Shown here in pieces: positions 48,745 through 54,655 of a stretch of 54,939 bases of DNA (position 1 is its first letter; the number at the start of each line of letters is the position of its first letter). Below the pieces are notes generated by a model, which did no database searches, was not told where the DNA came from, and saw only the letters and a program-made list of their open reading frames with translations. The position numbers and the translations under genes were made by a program. Source of the stretch: an uncultured Candidatus Saccharibacteria bacterium (GTDB lineage: Bacteria > Patescibacteriota > Minisyncoccia > CAIUEV01 > JAHKAQ01); the NCBI GenBank assembly GCA_964618065.1, contig CAZTZK010000019.1, forward strand, positions 1 to 54,939. Reading direction: 5' to 3'.

Positions 48745-51700
48745 ATGTCTGTTTTTTTAAAGCACTATAAAAAATTAAATCTCTCACAAAAGAAAGCTGT
48801 TGATTATCTTGACGGTCCAATTTTAGTGGCAGCCGGTCCCGGAACCGGAAAAACAGAAATTTTAGCCTTAAGAATAGCTAATCTAATCAGACGAAAAAAA
48901 GCTAAACCAGAAGAAATCCTGGCGCTTACTTTTAGTAATAGCGCTGTAGCATCCATGAGAAAAAGGACTGTTCAGTTTTTAGGGCTGCAAGCTTATAATA
49001 TTGAAATAAAAACTTTTCATGGTTTTTGCAATGAAGTGATAAATGATTATCCGGAAAAATTTACTTCTTTCAAAAATTTAGAACATTTGGACGAACTGGA
49101 ATCATTAAAAATAATTAAGGGAATTTTAAAACGAAAAAGTTTCAAACAAATAAAACCTTTTTATAATCCTTATCTTTATCAGAAAGAGATTCTTAGCACT
49201 CTGGGCGAGCTTAAAAGAGAAGGAGTTTCCCCGGAAGAACTTAGAGAAGCTTTAAAAAAGGAAAAAGAAAAACTTATTAGCTCTAAAAAGATAAATTCTA
49301 AAACGGGCAAACCAATTGGTAAATGGCAGGCTGCTTTTAAACGATGGGAAAGGTTAAAAGATCTTCTAGAAATTTATAAAGAATATTTAGCAAAAGGAGC
49401 CGAAAAAGACCGCTATGATTTTAGCGATATGATAATTTGGGTCACCGAACAGTTCAAGAAAGACTATGAATTAAAAAGTTCTTATCGTGATCGTTTTAAA
49501 TATATTTTAAGTGATGAATACCAAGATACTAACATTCCTCAAAATGAAGTAATTGAAATTTTGGGAAAGCCTGCTCAAAAACCTAATATTTTTGTGGTAG
49601 GAGATGACGATCAATCAATCTATCGTTTCCAGGGAGCTAGCTTAGACAATATTATTTCTTTTGAGAAAAAACATCCTGAAGCTAAAATTATCCCTCTAAA
49701 TATCAATTACCGTTCTCAACAAAAAATCGTGGCAGGTGCCAAAAGTTTGATCGAGAAGAATAAAGAGAGACTGGCCAATTTTACTCATCAGCAACTTGAT
49801 AAAAATATTAAATCATTTGCAGAGAAATCTAAAAAGGGGGAAATAACCCTCTATGAATTTCATGATGAGTTGGTGGAGAATTATTTTATCTCCCAAAAAA
49901 TTAAAGAATTGCATAAAAAAGGGATACCATTTAAAGAAATGGCTATTATAAATCGTACCAACAAAGACATTTCTCAAATAGCAGATTATCTTATTAAAGC
50001 CGGTATTCCAGTGGAAACTTCTAATGCTAATTCCATACTTGATGAAAAAGAGATAAGAGACATTCTAAGCATCTTATCAGCAGTTGTTAATCCTCAGGAT
50101 AATATTGCTATCTATGAAGCTATGAGTGTGGGAATTTGGAAAATTGATTCAATTGATTTTTTAAAATTTACCGTTCAAGCCAGCAGAGCGAGAAAAAAAT
50201 ATATTGATTTTTGGGAACAAAAAAATATCGAGAAAGGAAAAGAAAAAATCGCCTGGAAGGATTTTAAAAAAATAGACATTTTTTTTCAAAAGATTATTCA
50301 ATGGCATAAGGAGAGTATTCATTCTCCGGCAATTTTAGTATTAGAAAAAATTATTAATGAAGCTGGCTTAATTGAAGCTTGCTTGAAAGAAAAAAACATT
50401 AGGGAACTTAATAGAATATTTTCTCTATTCTCTTTTGTAAAGAAAAATAACCGGAAAAATATTTCTTTAAAATTAAAGGTCTTGTTAAAAGATTTGAAAA
50501 TTATGCAAGAAGATGAATTATCTATAAAAGAGAAAACGCTCTCTATGGCAGAAGATGACGTTCAAGTTATTACTGCCCATGCGGCTAAGGGTTTGGAATT
50601 TGAAGTAGTTTTTATCCCCCGCCTTTATCAAGGAAATTGGAGCGGCAAAAGAGAACATAATACCCTCAAGATTCCTTGGGAGAGTCTTTCTTTGTCTAAA
50701 AGAAACAGAAATGAGTCGGTAAAAGATGATGATGAAAGAAGATCTTTCTTTGTTGCAATGACTAGAGCTAAAAGCCAACTTTTTTTGAGTAGAGCAGATT
50801 ATTACGATTTTGCCGATAGTTTTGCCGATAGTAGCATAAAAGCTCCTTCCAGACTTTTAGAGGAGATAGAAGAAAATTTTTTTGAGAGGGGAAAAACTGA
50901 AAAATATGAAGATACATCCCTAGAGAGAATAAAAATAGAATTAAAAGAAAAACCGATTATCAATTCTAAAAAACGTTTAGAACAAGAAAATAATTTTTTA
51001 AGCCAACAAGTAGAAAATTTGGTCTTAAGTCCCACCAGCTTAAATCTTTATTTGCACTGTCCTCTTAAGTATAAATACGAGAAACTCTTAATGATTCCTA
51101 GTGCTAAAAATAAAACAGCTTCACTGGGGACATCTATTCATGCGGCTCTAGAAAGATTTTTTAGAGACTTTAAAGAAGGAAAGCCGGTCGGTAAATCTTC
51201 TCTGCTTACTTTTTTTAAAGAAGCTATTGCGCAGGAAATTTTTACAGCGGATGAATTAAAAGATGCCTTGAGAGAAGGGAAAAAAATGCTAGGCAATTAT
51301 TTTCAAGAATATAATAAAAGTTTTGTAAAACCGTTGGCTTTAGAGATGGATTTTGAAAAAGTTTATCTTCAAAAAATACCAACTTTAGATGTTGGTTCAG
51401 TAATGCTTACCGGGAAAATAGATAAAATTGAAGCGCTTAATCAAAAGATAAAAAATAAAAAGATCAAAACTCCCGTGAAAGTTATTGACTATAAAACAGG
51501 TAAATCTCAAACAAGAAATGAAATTTTAGGAAAAACAAAAAATTCTTCAGGAGATATTTATCGGCAATTAGTTTTTTATAAATTGCTTTCTCTCTTGGAT
51601 AAAAAATTTCCTTACTCCGTAGAAGAAGCCGAAGTGGATTTTGTTAAATCAGAAAATGGACGTTTTAGAAAAGAAAGCTTTCCGATAACTAAAGAAGAAA

Positions 51701-51825
51701 CAGCTAAATTGAAAGAAGAAATAGAATTGGTGGCTCAGAAAATAAAAAAATTAGATTTTAAACCTACTCAAGATAAAAGAAAATGTCAGCGTTGTGACTT
51801 TAAAAATATCTGCTCTCGTTTTTAA
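48745..51825 (+). CDS. UvrD/PcrA-type SF1 helicase fused to a C-terminal Cas4/AddB-like PD-(D/E)XK nuclease with Fe-S cluster cysteines
   Basis: 1026 aa. Helicase motifs are AGPGTGKT, SDEYQDT, VGDDDQSIYRFQGA, NYRS, ITAHAAKGLEFEVVFIP, and FFVAMTRAK. The C-terminal domain has LHCPLKY, GKIDKIE, VIDYKTGK, QLVFYKLL, and CQRCDFKNIC (1+3 Cys). Confidence 0.85.
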   Translation: MSVFLKHYKKLNLSQKKAVDYLDGPILVAAGPGTGKTEILALRIANLIRRKKAKPEEILALTFSNSAVASMRKRTVQFLGLQAYNIEIKTFHGFCNEVINDYPEKFTSFKNLEHLDELESLKIIKGILKRKSFKQIKPFYNPYLYQKEILSTLGELKREGVSPEELREALKKEKEKLISSKKINSKTGKPIGKWQAAFKRWERLKDLLEIYKEYLAKGAEKDRYDFSDMIIWVTEQFKKDYELKSSYRDRFKYILSDEYQDTNIPQNEVIEILGKPAQKPNIFVVGDDDQSIYRFQGASLDNIISFEKKHPEAKIIPLNINYRSQQKIVAGAKSLIEKNKERLANFTHQQLDKNIKSFAEKSKKGEITLYEFHDELVENYFISQKIKELHKKGIPFKEMAIINRTNKDISQIADYLIKAGIPVETSNANSILDEKEIRDILSILSAVVNPQDNIAIYEAMSVGIWKIDSIDFLKFTVQASRARKKYIDFWEQKNIEKGKEKIAWKDFKKIDIFFQKIIQWHKESIHSPAILVLEKIINEAGLIEACLKEKNIRELNRIFSLFSFVKKNNRKNISLKLKVLLKDLKIMQEDELSIKEKTLSMAEDDVQVITAHAAKGLEFEVVFIPRLYQGNWSGKREHNTLKIPWESLSLSKRNRNESVKDDDERRSFFVAMTRAKSQLFLSRADYYDFADSFADSSIKAPSRLLEEIEENFFERGKTEKYEDTSLERIKIELKEKPIINSKKRLEQENNFLSQQVENLVLSPTSLNLYLHCPLKYKYEKLLMIPSAKNKTASLGTSIHAALERFFRDFKEGKPVGKSSLLTFFKEAIAQEIFTADELKDALREGKKMLGNYFQEYNKSFVKPLALEMDFEKVYLQKIPTLDVGSVMLTGKIDKIEALNQKIKNKKIKTPVKVIDYKTGKSQTRNEILGKTKNSSGDIYRQLVFYKLLSLLDKKFPYSVEEAEVDFVKSENGRFRKESFPITKEETAKLKEEIELVAQKIKKLDFKPTQDKRKCQRCDFKNICSRF

Positions 51826-51912
51826 AGTTTTTTTAAATTGTTTTGCGAGTTTTTTTAACAGTATTTTTTTATACTGGGCTATAAGAATTTTTTAAAGAGA
51901 GGAGGTGATAAT

Positions 51913-52560
51913 ATGAAAAGTAAAAAATTTATAGCTTACTCCCCACATTTCTTTTCAAAGTTTTTTTCCTTTCTCAGGAGTAATAAAAGCAAATTCTTTT
52001 TGTTCGCTTTAGTAATGGTGGCTCTTGTCTTTGCTCTAAGTGTACGTTCCTATTTTTCTACCGAGGAAGGATCTTCTGGGAATAAAGTTTCTTTAGCAAC
52101 CTTGGATTTAGAAGTATCCGAAGAGGATGGATCTGTTTTAGCCCCTTTTGATTTTGGGAATATTTATCCCGGGTGGGATCATGAAATGAGAGGAAAAATT
52201 AGTAGTCTTAATTCAAGCGAAATGATTTTCAGAATAATGGTTAAAAATGGTAGTTTTGATTTCACGAGTTTAGCGAATGTCATTCTTTATGAGTTAAAGA
52301 TTGAGAACGATTTAGCTGTGCCAATTTATTCAAAGAATGGTTATTTAAAAGACTTGAATGAGGATAATAATTTTATGAATATTGTGATTGGTCCGGAAGA
52401 TTCTTTTGTCTATTCACTGAATTTAAAAGTTCCTTCAGATATTGATGATTGCACTACTCCGGAGAATGAAGACGATAATCAATACCAAGGAAAAAGTGCT
52501 CAATTTGATTTTATGATTCAATCAACTCAAACAGAGAATAGTTTCTGGCAAGGGTTTTAG
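51913..52560 (+). CDS. TasA/camelysin (peptidase M73)-like secreted fibre-type protein
   Basis: 215 aa. A hydrophobic anchor is followed by SYFSTEEGSSGNKVSLATLDLEV, a SipW-cognate-type N-terminal motif. FGNIYPGW and the C-terminal NQYQGKSAQFDFMIQSTQ parallel TasA blocks as I remember them. It has a strong SD (GGAGGTGA). Confidence 0.65.
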   Translation: MKSKKFIAYSPHFFSKFFSFLRSNKSKFFLFALVMVALVFALSVRSYFSTEEGSSGNKVSLATLDLEVSEEDGSVLAPFDFGNIYPGWDHEMRGKISSLNSSEMIFRIMVKNGSFDFTSLANVILYELKIENDLAVPIYSKNGYLKDLNEDNNFMNIVIGPEDSFVYSLNLKVPSDIDDCTTPENEDDNQYQGKSAQFDFMIQSTQTENSFWQGF

Positions 52561-52589
52561 TTATTTAATAAATTAATTAATAGGTAGAG

Positions 52590-53864
52590 ATGATAAGAAT
52601 TTTTGGGGCTTTTACTTCTCTTATGATGTTAGGAATTTTTTGTTTCGGCTTGAAATTTACTGAAGCTTATTTTTCTCAGAGTTGTTTGCTTGAAAATAAT
52701 AAAATTACTTTAGGAGACTGGACAGGTCCTGTTCTAGAGATTGTTCAAGCCCCTCAAGGAGATGTAGCTTATAGCAATTTAAGAATTAAAGTTAGGGGAG
52801 TTGATTCTTTTTCAACTTTAAAGAACTTTGAGTATCTTCTTTTTTCCCATAATCCAGAGAGTTTTTCTTCGGATCAAGTCAGCGAATTAAACTCCATTTA
52901 TTTTGAAGATGTTGAAAATAATATTTTGACCAGAGAAGTAGAAATATTTTTGCCCTTGGATAAAATAGAAAATTCAAGCCATAAACTTTGTGCTAGCGAT
53001 GAAATGTGGTGTGAAAATAAACCTTTACCGTCCGGAGAATATTATTTAATTGTTAGAGCTTATGATACAAGCGAAACTTTAGATTCTTCAGGTAATAGGA
53101 GCGAGGATTTAATTTACCAGTTTACTAAAAAAGACGCTCAAATTATTTGTGGATTGGCCTCTCTCAAAGCGAAAGCGGGGGAGGGAATTAATTTTCCAGA
53201 TATTGCTTGCTTAGCAGAACCAGAACTTAAAGAGATAAAATGGGATTTAGATAATTCAGACGGAATAAATTTAGATGATCCTGATTTAGTAGGCAACGCC
53301 CCTTTTTTGGAAGGAGGTATTTTAATCCCAGGGACTTACTCGGCTTTTGTAGAAGCTAAAAGTGTAGAAGGGAAGACAAAAAGTCAGTCATTTGAAATAA
53401 ATATTGGCAATCCCTCTCTCTTTTTTGGAGATCTAATTATTAATGAGTTTCTCCCTGATCCAATCGGAGATGATAAAGCGTTAGCTCCAGGAGGAGAGTG
53501 GATAGAAATTTATAATAGCTTAGAAACCGGTGTAGATCTTTTGGGGTTTATGCTTTACGACGATTATGACAACCATGATCTTCCTATTGTTAAAAATAAC
53601 TGCCAAGATTACTCAAGCGTTATCTTTCCCCATTCTTATAAATTAATTTATCGAAATGGTGATGCTGATTTTTCGCTTAATAATAGTGGTCCGGAAAGAG
53701 TTAGGCTTTTTAGTGGATTTATTGAAAATGAGAGTGTCCTTTTAGATAGTTGTGAATATTCAGAGAAAGTTCTAGAAGGTAATTCTTTGGCTAGAATCCC
53801 TGACTTAGGAGAGGAGTTTTATCAAATTAATCCTACTCCAGGTGAAATCAATAAAACCCCCTGA
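52590..53864 (+). CDS. Secreted/anchored protein with a TasA/TapA-type N-terminal motif, a PKD-like middle domain and a C-terminal lamin-tail domain (LTD)
   Basis: 424 aa. Anchor plus AYFSQSCLLENNKITLGDWTGP, then IKWDLDNSDG...PGTYSAFVEAKSVEG (PKD-like). The LTD blocks are LIINEFLPDPIGDD, GEWIEIYNS, VDLLGFMLYDD, and RVRLFSG. Confidence 0.7.
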   Translation: MIRIFGAFTSLMMLGIFCFGLKFTEAYFSQSCLLENNKITLGDWTGPVLEIVQAPQGDVAYSNLRIKVRGVDSFSTLKNFEYLLFSHNPESFSSDQVSELNSIYFEDVENNILTREVEIFLPLDKIENSSHKLCASDEMWCENKPLPSGEYYLIVRAYDTSETLDSSGNRSEDLIYQFTKKDAQIICGLASLKAKAGEGINFPDIACLAEPELKEIKWDLDNSDGINLDDPDLVGNAPFLEGGILIPGTYSAFVEAKSVEGKTKSQSFEINIGNPSLFFGDLIINEFLPDPIGDDKALAPGGEWIEIYNSLETGVDLLGFMLYDDYDNHDLPIVKNNCQDYSSVIFPHSYKLIYRNGDADFSLNNSGPERVRLFSGFIENESVLLDSCEYSEKVLEGNSLARIPDLGEEFYQINPTPGEINKTP

Positions 53865-53883
53865 CATTGCAGGGGGTTTTATT
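53853..53883 (+). terminator. Rho-independent terminator
   Basis: AAAACCCCCTG (53853-53863) pairs with CAGGGGGTTTT (53870-53880) around a 6-nt loop. The stem is GC-rich and runs into a T tract. It overlaps the TGA stop of the LTD gene. Confidence 0.8.
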
Positions 53884-53986: not shown

Positions 53987-54006
53987 TGTAAATTAATTAA
54001 TTTACA
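53987..54006. repeat. Perfect 20-bp palindrome TGTAAATTAATTAATTTACA
   Basis: Read directly from the sequence. It spans the stop codon of the minus-strand gene ending at 54002. It may be a weak AU-rich terminator for that gene. Confidence 0.6.
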
Positions 54007-54655
54007 GACCCGGTACCTGCTGACTGAAAACTTTCAAGTTTTCTAGCTGATTTGAGGTCAATGTTTTAGCATCTTTTAGAGCTAACTCGATATCATTTTC
54101 GGAGAATGTTTTCTTCTCTCCTATATTTAGCTGAGAAGAATATCCCATTTTCTTTGCTAAATAGTCTTCCATGTATACTTTATGCTCTGCTGTTATAGAA
54201 GGATCATTATGATTATCTAGATACTGCTTGATTGCTGAACGGGCTAAAGTTGTTAAACTATCACCCTTAGCTGCTGTTACTTCATAAGATCCACCATCTT
54301 GGGAAATTATGGTTTCTTCTTGCTGAGGGGTTGTTTCCGTCGCTACCTCTTCCGTCGCTACCTCTTCTTCAGTAAATTCTTCTATTTCAGTAATTTCTTC
54401 TGAATCTGCCTCTTCTTCATCAGTTTTTCCCTCAATTATTTCTTCAATATTTACTTCTTCAGAAGTTTCTTCTGCTAAATTCTCTTCTGTTTCTTCAGCT
54501 CCTCTCTTTGAATAAGAATAAACACCCAAAGCAATTGCTAAAACAATAACTATTGATAGAACTATTCGAACATTGTCGTGTATCCAATTTTTGATTTCCG
54601 AAGGCCAGCCTTCTGAAGGTTCAGGGGCTTCGCCTTCATTCTTCATCTTATTCAC
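54002..54655 (-). CDS. Membrane-anchored protein with an acidic linker and a small C-terminal domain, unknown function
   Basis: 217 aa. Short N-terminus, one TM helix (IVLSIVIVLAIALGVYSY), a Glu-rich linker of about 70 aa, then a domain beginning YEVTAAKGDSLTTLARSAI, which is weakly LysM-like. Confidence 0.45.
   Translation of the reverse strand: MNKMKNEGEAPEPSEGWPSEIKNWIHDNVRIVLSIVIVLAIALGVYSYSKRGAEETEENLAEETSEEVNIEEIIEGKTDEEEADSEEITEIEEFTEEEVATEEVATETTPQQEETIISQDGGSYEVTAAKGDSLTTLARSAIKQYLDNHNDPSITAEHKVYMEDYLAKKMGYSSQLNIGEKKTFSENDIELALKDAKTLTSNQLENLKVFSQQVPGL
54337..54366. repeat. Perfect 15-bp tandem duplication (CCGTCGCTACCTCTT x2) inside the acidic-linker coding region
   Basis: Read directly from the sequence. 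It encodes the EEVAT-EEVAT repeat of the minus-strand protein. Confidence 0.85.

Follow-up and report, generated by a model that had tools for sequence, protein, structure and literature searches.

Two adjacent genes near the end of a 54,939-nucleotide stretch of DNA from an uncultured Candidatus Saccharibacteria bacterium (assembly GCA_964618065.1, contig CAZTZK010000019.1; the whole stretch is hereafter called the window) are read here as a two-gene operon for a TasA-type extracellular fibre, and we put the probability of this reading at roughly 0.6. Gene 1 encodes a divergent relative of TasA, and gene 2 encodes a secreted protein that ends in a lamin-tail domain (LTD). The original prediction, made from the letters of the window, had proposed a TasA-like fibre module with an LTD-bearing partner, and this proposal is supported by the profile homology of gene 1, the N-terminus shared by the two proteins, the conservation of the pair, and the recurrence of related cassettes in other genomes. 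Both open reading frames (ORFs) were recovered as predicted in position, strand, and length (Table 1), and they lie on the same strand with a spacing of 29 bp. The description of the genome as resembling the Candidate Phyla Radiation (CPR, Patescibacteria) is justified, since the closest named relatives of both proteins are from Patescibacteria metagenome-assembled genomes (MAGs); the G+C content of the window is 32%.

Table 1 Features of the two-gene locus, with positions in the window.
Feature	Positions	Strand	Description	Basis or counterpart
Shine-Dalgarno sequence	51901-51908	+	GGAGGTGA, 4 nt 5' of the gene 1 ATG
Gene 1	51913-52560	+	215 aa; divergent TasA/camelysin-superfamily protein, proposed major fibre subunit
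Gene 1, aa 1-46	51913-52050	+	long basic n-region, hydrophobic helix FFLFALVMVALVFALSV, predicted cleavage between VRS and YFS
Gene 1, aa 47-67	52051-52113	+	YFSTEEGSSGNKVSLATLDLE, putative counterpart of the TasA N-terminal donor strand	aligned to TasA KSKDATFASGTLDLSA
Gene 1, aa 174-189	52432-52479	+	acidic insertion PSDIDDCTTPENEDDN, subfamily-specific
Gene 1, aa 189-206	52477-52530	+	C-terminal strand block NQYQGKSAQFDFMIQSTQ	aligned to TasA NKYQGNSIKLQFSFEATQ
Gene 2	52590-53864	+	424 aa; secreted multi-domain LTD protein, proposed minor, nucleating or tip subunit
Gene 2, aa 1-47	52590-52730	+	signal peptide (predicted cleavage between TEA and YFS) and donor-strand-like motif YFSQSCLLENNKITLGDWTGP
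Gene 2 D1, aa 48-180	52731-53129	+	beta-sandwich with conserved cysteines C134 and C141	AF2 strands, conserved columns
Gene 2 D2, aa 185-275	53142-53414	+	Ig/PKD-like beta-sandwich	family profile match
Gene 2 D3, aa 280-415	53427-53834	+	lamin-tail domain	PF00932 at aa 280-375
Hairpin	53850-53883	.	G+C-rich, A-tract 5' and U-tract 3', overlapping the gene 2 stop codon	folding

The relationship of gene 1 to TasA was detected at the level of sequence profiles. A search of the PDB sequences with gene 1, or with the profile of its six-member family, returned nothing relevant. Three relatives of gene 1 were found by a word-indexed homology search, three loci with relatives by a scan of the GTDB species representatives, and 23 matches (E up to 1e-3) by an exhaustive HMMER search of 1.8 billion representatives; as sampled by these searches, the gene 1 family is narrow. 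The distant matches are proteins of 168-205 amino acids (aa), and 15 of them were aligned with five members of the gene 1 family. Among the 20 aligned sequences, PF12389 (Peptidase_M73) was found in 15 (best E 4.9e-14), TIGR04088, the SipW-cognate signal model, in 14, and the NCBIfam TasA model in eight. The 167 columns that hhalign aligned between the gene 1 family and the 15 distant TasA-like proteins (99.8% probability, E 9e-29) begin in the signal peptide and end in the C-terminal strand, and a hidden Markov model (HMM) built from these 15 proteins alone gave gene 1 a score of 93.5 bits over HMM positions 8-177. TasA and AbpX surfaced among the PDB sequences only once the distant relatives had joined the gene 1 profile; the joint profile reached the TasA chains 5of1 and 8aur at about 2e-8 and archaeal AbpX at 5e-6. 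The significant similarity of gene 1 to the TasA/camelysin family that had been anticipated was thereby recovered along the full length of the profiles, the structural part being weaker, and on these profile comparisons gene 1 is a divergent homologue within the TasA/camelysin superfamily.

A camelysin-type metalloprotease role was considered for gene 1 and rejected; the protein has no HExxH, and its sole His-Glu pair, H90-E91, is not conserved, with Tyr in the orthologues. The JGI gene call for gene 1 of the window (P0001, 181 aa) starts too late, at M35. The closest distant relative, P0034, is encoded in a tandem pair of TasA-like genes (locus L011, 2597-6219), which lies directly 3' of a UvrD-type helicase gene and echoes the helicase-gene 1 order of the window; the L011 contig ends before any further gene downstream.

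The AlphaFold 2 (AF2) model of gene 1 (predicted local distance difference test, pLDDT, 76) shows a beta-sandwich behind a long N-terminal helix, with helices assigned at aa 11-22 and 24-48. In a Foldseek comparison with TasA 5of1, the model gave an E value of 2.6e-3, a probability of 1.00, and template modelling (TM) scores of 0.43/0.45, the best TM listed; these scores are depressed by the signal helix, which was part of the compared model. The best E values (1e-4 to 4e-4) were obtained with other subunits of donor-strand filaments, namely the archaeal thread subunit 7pnb, CfaB, and CanA, and AbpA was also listed. We consider the structural support for the TasA relationship of gene 1 to be moderate, as judged from this predicted model.

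Gene 1 does contain the two sequence blocks on which the original prediction had relied, SYFSTEEGSSGNKVSLATLDLEV and NQYQGKSAQFDFMIQSTQ. The TasA blocks that it cited as their parallels are real as well; the PDB chain 5of1 contains SKDATFASGTLDLSA and, further on, QNKYQGNSIKLQFSFEATQWN, which fall in the same profile columns as the blocks of gene 1. The first 46 residues of gene 1 align with the signal peptides of TIGR04088-positive proteins, and the N-terminal extension is kept in the orthologues. Cleavage would occur between VRS and YFS, as suggested by the -3/-1 residues and by the analogy of TasA, in which A28 is the first mature residue. In TasA, the donor strand comprises residues 28-38, with F29, I32, and F39 as anchors (PMC9674648). 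In the corresponding segment of gene 1, Y47, F48, S49, N57, A62, L64, and L66 are invariant among the orthologues, and pLDDT is below 50 for aa 45-63 of the monomer model, suggesting that this segment is not packed on its own domain. The C-terminal strand block is the stretch that matches Peptidase_M73 positions 168-193, and together with the donor-strand block it forms the most conserved part of gene 1 among the orthologues. Immediately 5' of the NQYQGK strand lies the acidic insertion, whose pattern D-[IM]-DD-x-TTPEN-[ED]-DDN is invariant or nearly so in the orthologues, is aligned as a gap in other TasA-like proteins, and has low pLDDT in the gene 1 model. Since calcium coordination accompanies donor-strand complementation in the AbpX and CanA filaments, we speculate that the insertion might form a site for Ca2+ or another metal.

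These features also bear on whether gene 1 polymerises at all. Gene 1 might instead stay tethered to the membrane by an uncleaved signal-anchor, with gene 2 acting as a separate LTD adhesin or nuclease partner. The unusually long basic n-region of about 27 aa 5' of the hydrophobic helix would suit such a protein, as would the lack of a peptidase gene nearby and the subfamily-specific acidic insertion, which is a divergence from the characterised fibre formers; moreover, the literature (including PMC6085458) connects prokaryotic LTDs with membrane association and with enzymes that act on extracellular DNA. However, long signal peptides are known in the superfamily, a signal peptide of 54 residues having been predicted for AbpX in a preprint, and a type I cleavage site is compatible with the -3/-1 residues, V-R-S in gene 1 and T-E-A in gene 2. 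The concentration of conservation in the donor-strand and C-terminal strand blocks, and the very strong Shine-Dalgarno (SD) sequence described below, which suggests an abundant structural product, also argue for a polymerising subunit, and we regard a permanently tethered gene 1 as unlikely.

Gene 2 resembles gene 1 at the N-terminus. The original prediction had pointed to an N-terminal motif of the same class, and AYFSQSCLLENNKITLGDW of gene 2 indeed has the F-to-N and N-x-[VI] spacing of gene 1. Following the hydrophobic helix, gene 1 reads VRS-YFSTEEGSSGNKVSLATLDLE and gene 2 reads TEA-YFSQSCLLENNKITLGDWTGP, with equal spacing from F to N-K-[VI], and cleavage of gene 2 would, by the same analogy, occur between TEA and YFS. 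The pattern A-[YF]-F-[ST]-x(6-8)-N-x-[FIV]-x-x-[GA] is found in both genes directly 3' of the hydrophobic region and in register with the family, and a loose regular expression for the motif, run over all six frames of the window, matched these two ORFs only. The gene 1 motif falls inside the hhalign alignment with the TasA-like set, from column 32, and the N-termini of the gene 2 family aligned in register with the same set at 92% probability (P 5e-7). The TasA-like HMM matched gene 2 at aa 9-42 only (12.4 bits). These in-register alignments and HMM matches place the N-termini in the SipW-cognate class rather than among ordinary Sec signals. Among the gene 2 orthologues, A26, F28, G42, D43, W44, and P47 are nearly invariant, and pLDDT is below 50 for aa 22-40 of the AF2 model, suggesting that the segment following the signal is, as in gene 1, not packed on its own domain. 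A hidden TasA-like core in D1 or D2 of gene 2 was sought by hhalign and rejected (probability < 1%). The common ground between gene 2 and the TasA-like proteins, as far as these sequence comparisons detect it, is thus only the SipW-type signal and the donor-strand-like N-terminus.

With the resemblance limited to this segment, the fibre could be real and gene 2 no part of it. Gene 2 would then be a free secreted binding protein that takes the same SipW-type route of export and processing, a picture in keeping with the lack of TasA similarity in D1 and D2 and with the occurrence of TIGR04088-type signals on varied proteins of several SipW-dependent families. However, the conserved motif runs well beyond the likely cleavage site (N37 to W44, P47) and so takes in the donor-strand segment of TasA and TapA, a reach for which a signal serving cleavage alone would have no need. 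Furthermore, in every cassette seen (see below) the LTD gene is immediately 3' of the peptidase gene or of a TasA-like gene. Of the alternatives considered here we find this one the hardest to credit, and we retain gene 2 as a putative component of the fibre.

Beyond its N-terminus, gene 2 appears to be a chain of beta-sandwich domains. Ten full-length orthologues were found (39-98% identity), and the named ones are from Patescibacteria. The AF2 model (pLDDT 83) contains three beta-sandwich domains, and Foldseek with the whole model listed only generic matches of the multi-Ig (immunoglobulin) adhesin type at very low TM scores, which depend chiefly on how the domains are oriented to each other, and left D1 without an assignment. 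No relatives of D1 were detectable. For D2, aa 185-272 of the gene 2 family profile matched SorCS2 chain 1wgo (E 0.007), and no more than aa 242-274 matched three collagenase chains (E 0.25-0.45); we take 1wgo to be a PKD domain and the collagenase chains to be PKD-like. The Pfam scan of gene 2 gave no PKD match. The domain, earlier described as PKD-like, is weakly so by the profile match to 1wgo. The LTD that had been recognised at the C-terminus was detected narrowly above the cut-off, with PF00932 scoring 35.8 bits (E 1.1e-8) against a gathering threshold of 34.3, and the precomputed annotation assigns PF00932 to 28 of 28 gene 2 homologues. The domain is modelled with pLDDT of about 90-94 and is 33-48% identical to the LTDs of distant homologues, including those of the cassette proteins P0014 and P0016. 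Pfam and NCBIfam gave no match in gene 2 besides the LTD, and no enzymatic domain was detected by Pfam.

In all orthologous Patescibacteria loci examined, the gene 1 orthologue (38-59% identity) lies directly 5' of the gene 2 orthologue (39-63%), as expected from the original prediction that the two genes are conserved as neighbours. Distant relatives of the LTD protein extend this association. In four loci (L010, L014, L015, and L016), they are encoded in cassettes together with a TasA-like protein and a SipW-type signal peptidase, and the genes surrounding the four cassettes differ from one another. The gene order in L010 and L014 is TasA-like protein (PF12389), signal peptidase, and LTD protein, and the two peptidases score 97 and 117 bits against the archaeal/SipW-type model TIGR02228 (cut-off 51.85). 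Among named relatives, the closest to the L014 peptidase come from MAGs of Patescibacteria and Paceibacterota, and two of them sit in the same kind of cassette, L015 and L016. The LTD proteins of the cassettes start with canonical SipW-type motifs, e.g., NAYFNDIENSIGNNFSAGILDI. By gene content, the pair in the window is a reduced form of this recurrent three-gene Patescibacteria cassette. The arrangement is not special to the window; the cassette form is already present, unremarked, in public Patescibacteria MAGs.

The two classes of protein, and their order, are common to the cassettes and the window; the LTDs of L010 and L014 are 41-45% identical to that of gene 2, and two of the four cassettes are in named CPR (Patescibacteria/Paceibacterota) MAGs. 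A peptidase gene and additional TasA-like paralogues set the cassettes apart from the window. The cassette major subunits pass the Pfam threshold, those of L014-L016 are longer (328-359 aa), and the LTD proteins of L014, L015, and L016 have a fuller TasA-like N-terminal stretch than gene 2. The gene 3' of the cassette LTD gene also has a TasA-like core. Such genes, unannotated or annotated as Pur_ac_phosph_N, cover HMM positions of about 60-166 (L014 3323-4453, L015 8858-9955, L016 9391-10578, and L010 7217-8206 and 3310-4422) and probably encode extra minor subunits. In L014 and L015, a CAP-domain gene adjoins them. The archaeal loci of LTD homologues, L012 and L013, have no annotated TasA-like neighbour, and the association with TasA-like proteins is therefore not universal for LTD proteins. 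In the searchable literature we found no experimental characterisation of the four cassettes.

Several observations weigh against a joint fibre. Scored by itself, gene 1 matches PF12389 with 14.5 bits (E 0.032) at aa 183-208 only and falls below the gathering threshold of 22.5 bits; five of its six orthologues show PF12389 matches (best E 7.7e-5), which are weaker than those of typical members. With TIGR04088, no match to either protein was obtained up to E 1. Of the HMM checks proposed along with the original prediction, those with PF12389 and TIGR04088 thus came out negative for the proteins of the window. The structural similarity of gene 1 to TasA is modest, with TM below 0.5 and an E value of 2.6e-3. 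As had been predicted for the window, neither phmmer nor a box-B motif search found a SipW-type peptidase in its 55 kb, and none was found within 6 kb of the orthologues. No cell-wall or membrane anchor is obvious in either protein except the signal-anchor of gene 1, and the function of LTDs in prokaryotes is unestablished (PMC6085458). The flanking genes, encoding the UvrD/PDDEXK helicase, gene 3, PrmC, RF1, and L31, are also conserved in the orthologous loci, and since the whole neighbourhood is syntenic in close orthologues, adjacency there is by itself weak evidence.

The failure of both proteins in the curated TIGR04088 model, the conserved flanks, and the lack of a dedicated peptidase nearby would all be expected if the two genes encoded independent secreted or surface proteins with ordinary Sec signals, neighbours through synteny within a narrow lineage and without a joint fibre. 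However, the combination of TasA-like protein, LTD protein, and SipW-type peptidase recurs in four cassettes with different neighbours, which is stronger evidence for linkage than the synteny of orthologues, and the N-terminal motif is in register with TIGR04088-positive proteins and limited, within the window, to these two ORFs. Independence of the two proteins accordingly seems to us improbable, about as much so as a tethered gene 1, and we continue to favour the fibre operon.

The expression signals also distinguish the two genes. The original prediction had claimed that gene 1 has the strongest SD sequence of the window, which was confirmed by duplex energies; gene 1 reaches -22 kcal/mol, the other 54 ORFs of at least 100 aa reach -9.4 kcal/mol at best, and gene 2 gives -4.5 kcal/mol, all calculated with the canonical anti-SD sequence, which may not be the 16S 3' end of this organism. 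The sequence GGAGGTGA occurs three times in the window, and one of the three copies precedes a gene start. It is kept 5' of the gene 1 orthologues in L001, L002, L004, and L005 and is absent 5' of the gene 2 orthologues. This contrast fits an abundant major subunit from gene 1 and a rare minor subunit from gene 2. Nearly all 55 ORFs of at least 100 aa, including the ribosomal protein genes, have no recognisable SD sequence, which suggests a largely SD-independent genome with gene 1 singled out. The public calls for two gene 1 orthologues (L001 5203-5223, L005 5230-5238) seem to start too far upstream, and the surplus codons (MKNGGDK..., VKN...) are the translated ribosome-binding site GGAGGTGA.

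The strong GC-rich terminator that had been proposed to end the pair was also found. The hairpin 3' of gene 2 (-21.8 kcal/mol, z -4.6) is the strongest terminator-like hairpin of the window on either strand; it was missed by a terminator scanner and was revealed by folding and by a separate scan. Equivalent hairpins with altered stem bases lie 3' of the gene 2 orthologues in L001, L003, and L008. Since A and U tracts flank the hairpin and it is located between convergent operons, it is a probable bidirectional intrinsic terminator.

We propose the following scheme for the fibre. Gene 1 would be exported and its signal-anchor cut just 5' of YFS, either by the general signal peptidase or by one of the SipW/archaeal type whose gene lies elsewhere in the genome. 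The freed N-terminal strand of about 20 residues (YFS...NKVSLATLDLE) would then enter the beta-sandwich of the next gene 1 subunit, and gene 1, as the abundant major subunit, would polymerise by donor-strand exchange as B. subtilis TasA does. Gene 2, the rare minor subunit, would likewise be exported, cut 5' of YFS, and donate its strand to one end subunit of gene 1, thereby nucleating or capping the fibre in the manner proposed for TapA and archaeal AbpB. It would display the Ig-like domains D1 and D2 and the C-terminal LTD as a binding end, for which a host surface, a polymer, or DNA are candidate ligands. More speculatively, a gene 1 subunit at the base whose signal-anchor stays uncleaved might tie the fibre to the cell.

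This scheme has its closest characterised parallel in B. subtilis and its tapA-sipW-tasA operon. There, too, the two genes share a strand and an operon, the homologous major subunit has an N-terminal signal followed by the donor-strand block and a C-terminal N-x-YQG...TQ block, and an accessory protein encoded beside it has no more than the N-terminal motif in common with it before running on into Ig-like domains. The N-terminus of TapA resembles the TasA donor strand, and TapA nucleates fibres and is the proposed supplier of the first strand (PMC9674648; PMC10151520). The differences are that sipW is absent from the operon and from the 55-kb window, that the major subunit comes first, and that gene 1 is shorter than TasA, carries the acidic insertion, and scores below the Pfam threshold. 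Outside the N-terminus gene 2 has no relationship to TapA, its last domain is an LTD, and the likeness between them is functional and architectural only.

The archaeal bundling pili offer a second parallel. Pyrobaculum AbpA/AbpB and AbpX belong to the TasA superfamily and show donor-strand complementation. The AbpA operon, like the pair described here, has no dedicated signal peptidase (PMC9245690), and its downstream multi-beta-domain protein has been proposed as an initiator or adhesin. TapA and AbpB resemble gene 2 in layout, with a strand-like N-terminus followed by complete Ig-like domains, and are not its homologues. According to the AbpX preprint, the loci there include a signal peptidase together with minor and tip components, and the fold of the tip components varies between lineages. 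The archaeal proteins differ in being far more divergent in sequence, with AbpX reaching the family described here at only E 5e-6 in profile similarity, and no LTD has been reported in their tip proteins. A PF00932 domain is also found in the secreted nuclease ExeM of Shewanella; in that protein the LTD occurs alongside nuclease domains, with a role described as still to be resolved (PMC6085458), whereas gene 2 has no detectable enzymatic domain. Wang et al. 2022 (PMC9245690) had already counted the Patescibacteria among phyla that have PF12389 homologues. In the searchable library, which is incomplete, we found no paper that links LTD proteins with TasA-like systems or describes such fibres in CPR bacteria.

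The pair is embedded among genes of other functions. The 5' neighbour of gene 1 is a gene for a 1026-aa UvrD/PD-(D/E)XK helicase-nuclease (48745-51825, + strand) at a gap of 87 bp, whose C-terminus is the cysteine cluster KCQRCDFKNIC. In L003 (3186-4675) and L005 (3438-5087), the genes for the large and small subunits of exonuclease VII separate the helicase gene from the gene 1 orthologue; they are absent from this interval in the window and in L001. Gene 3 (54002-54655, - strand; a 217-aa ORF) is convergent with gene 2, and its orthologues (L001 7431-8120, L003 6966-7670, L005 7570-8253) make it a conserved convergent neighbour; in relatives it is the last gene of the L31-RF1-PrmC operon. 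Its product combines a short N-terminal region with a single transmembrane helix, an acidic linker that varies, and a C-terminal domain of about 95 aa that is conserved; this domain opens with YEVTAAKGDSLTTLARSA, which resembles the start of a LysM domain. Gene 3 has no Pfam match, and from this resemblance it could encode a wall-binding protein. The housekeeping genes of the window also include those for the ribosomal proteins S12 and S7, NDK, RNase HII, and TatD.

Host attachment and scavenging in CPR bacteria are mostly credited to type IV pili. We raise, tentatively and as a possibility that we hold to be doubtful, that the cassettes encode a widespread, undescribed organelle of the Patescibacteria, namely a chaperone-free, donor-strand-exchanged TasA-type fibre with an LTD-adhesin tip, which here would be cut down to two genes without a dedicated peptidase and would serve as a second device for attachment or for polymer or DNA capture beside type IV pili. 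A smaller, practical gain concerns annotation, since gene 1 and its orthologues are at present labelled hypothetical because they score under the Pfam threshold. If the fibre reading is true, CPR bacteria would have a second and simple surface structure that takes only two genes, and prokaryotic lamin-tail domains would gain a concrete setting at a filament's distal end. The rule that a major subunit is accompanied by a strand-donating accessory protein, seen in Bacillus and in archaea, would then reach a third large lineage.

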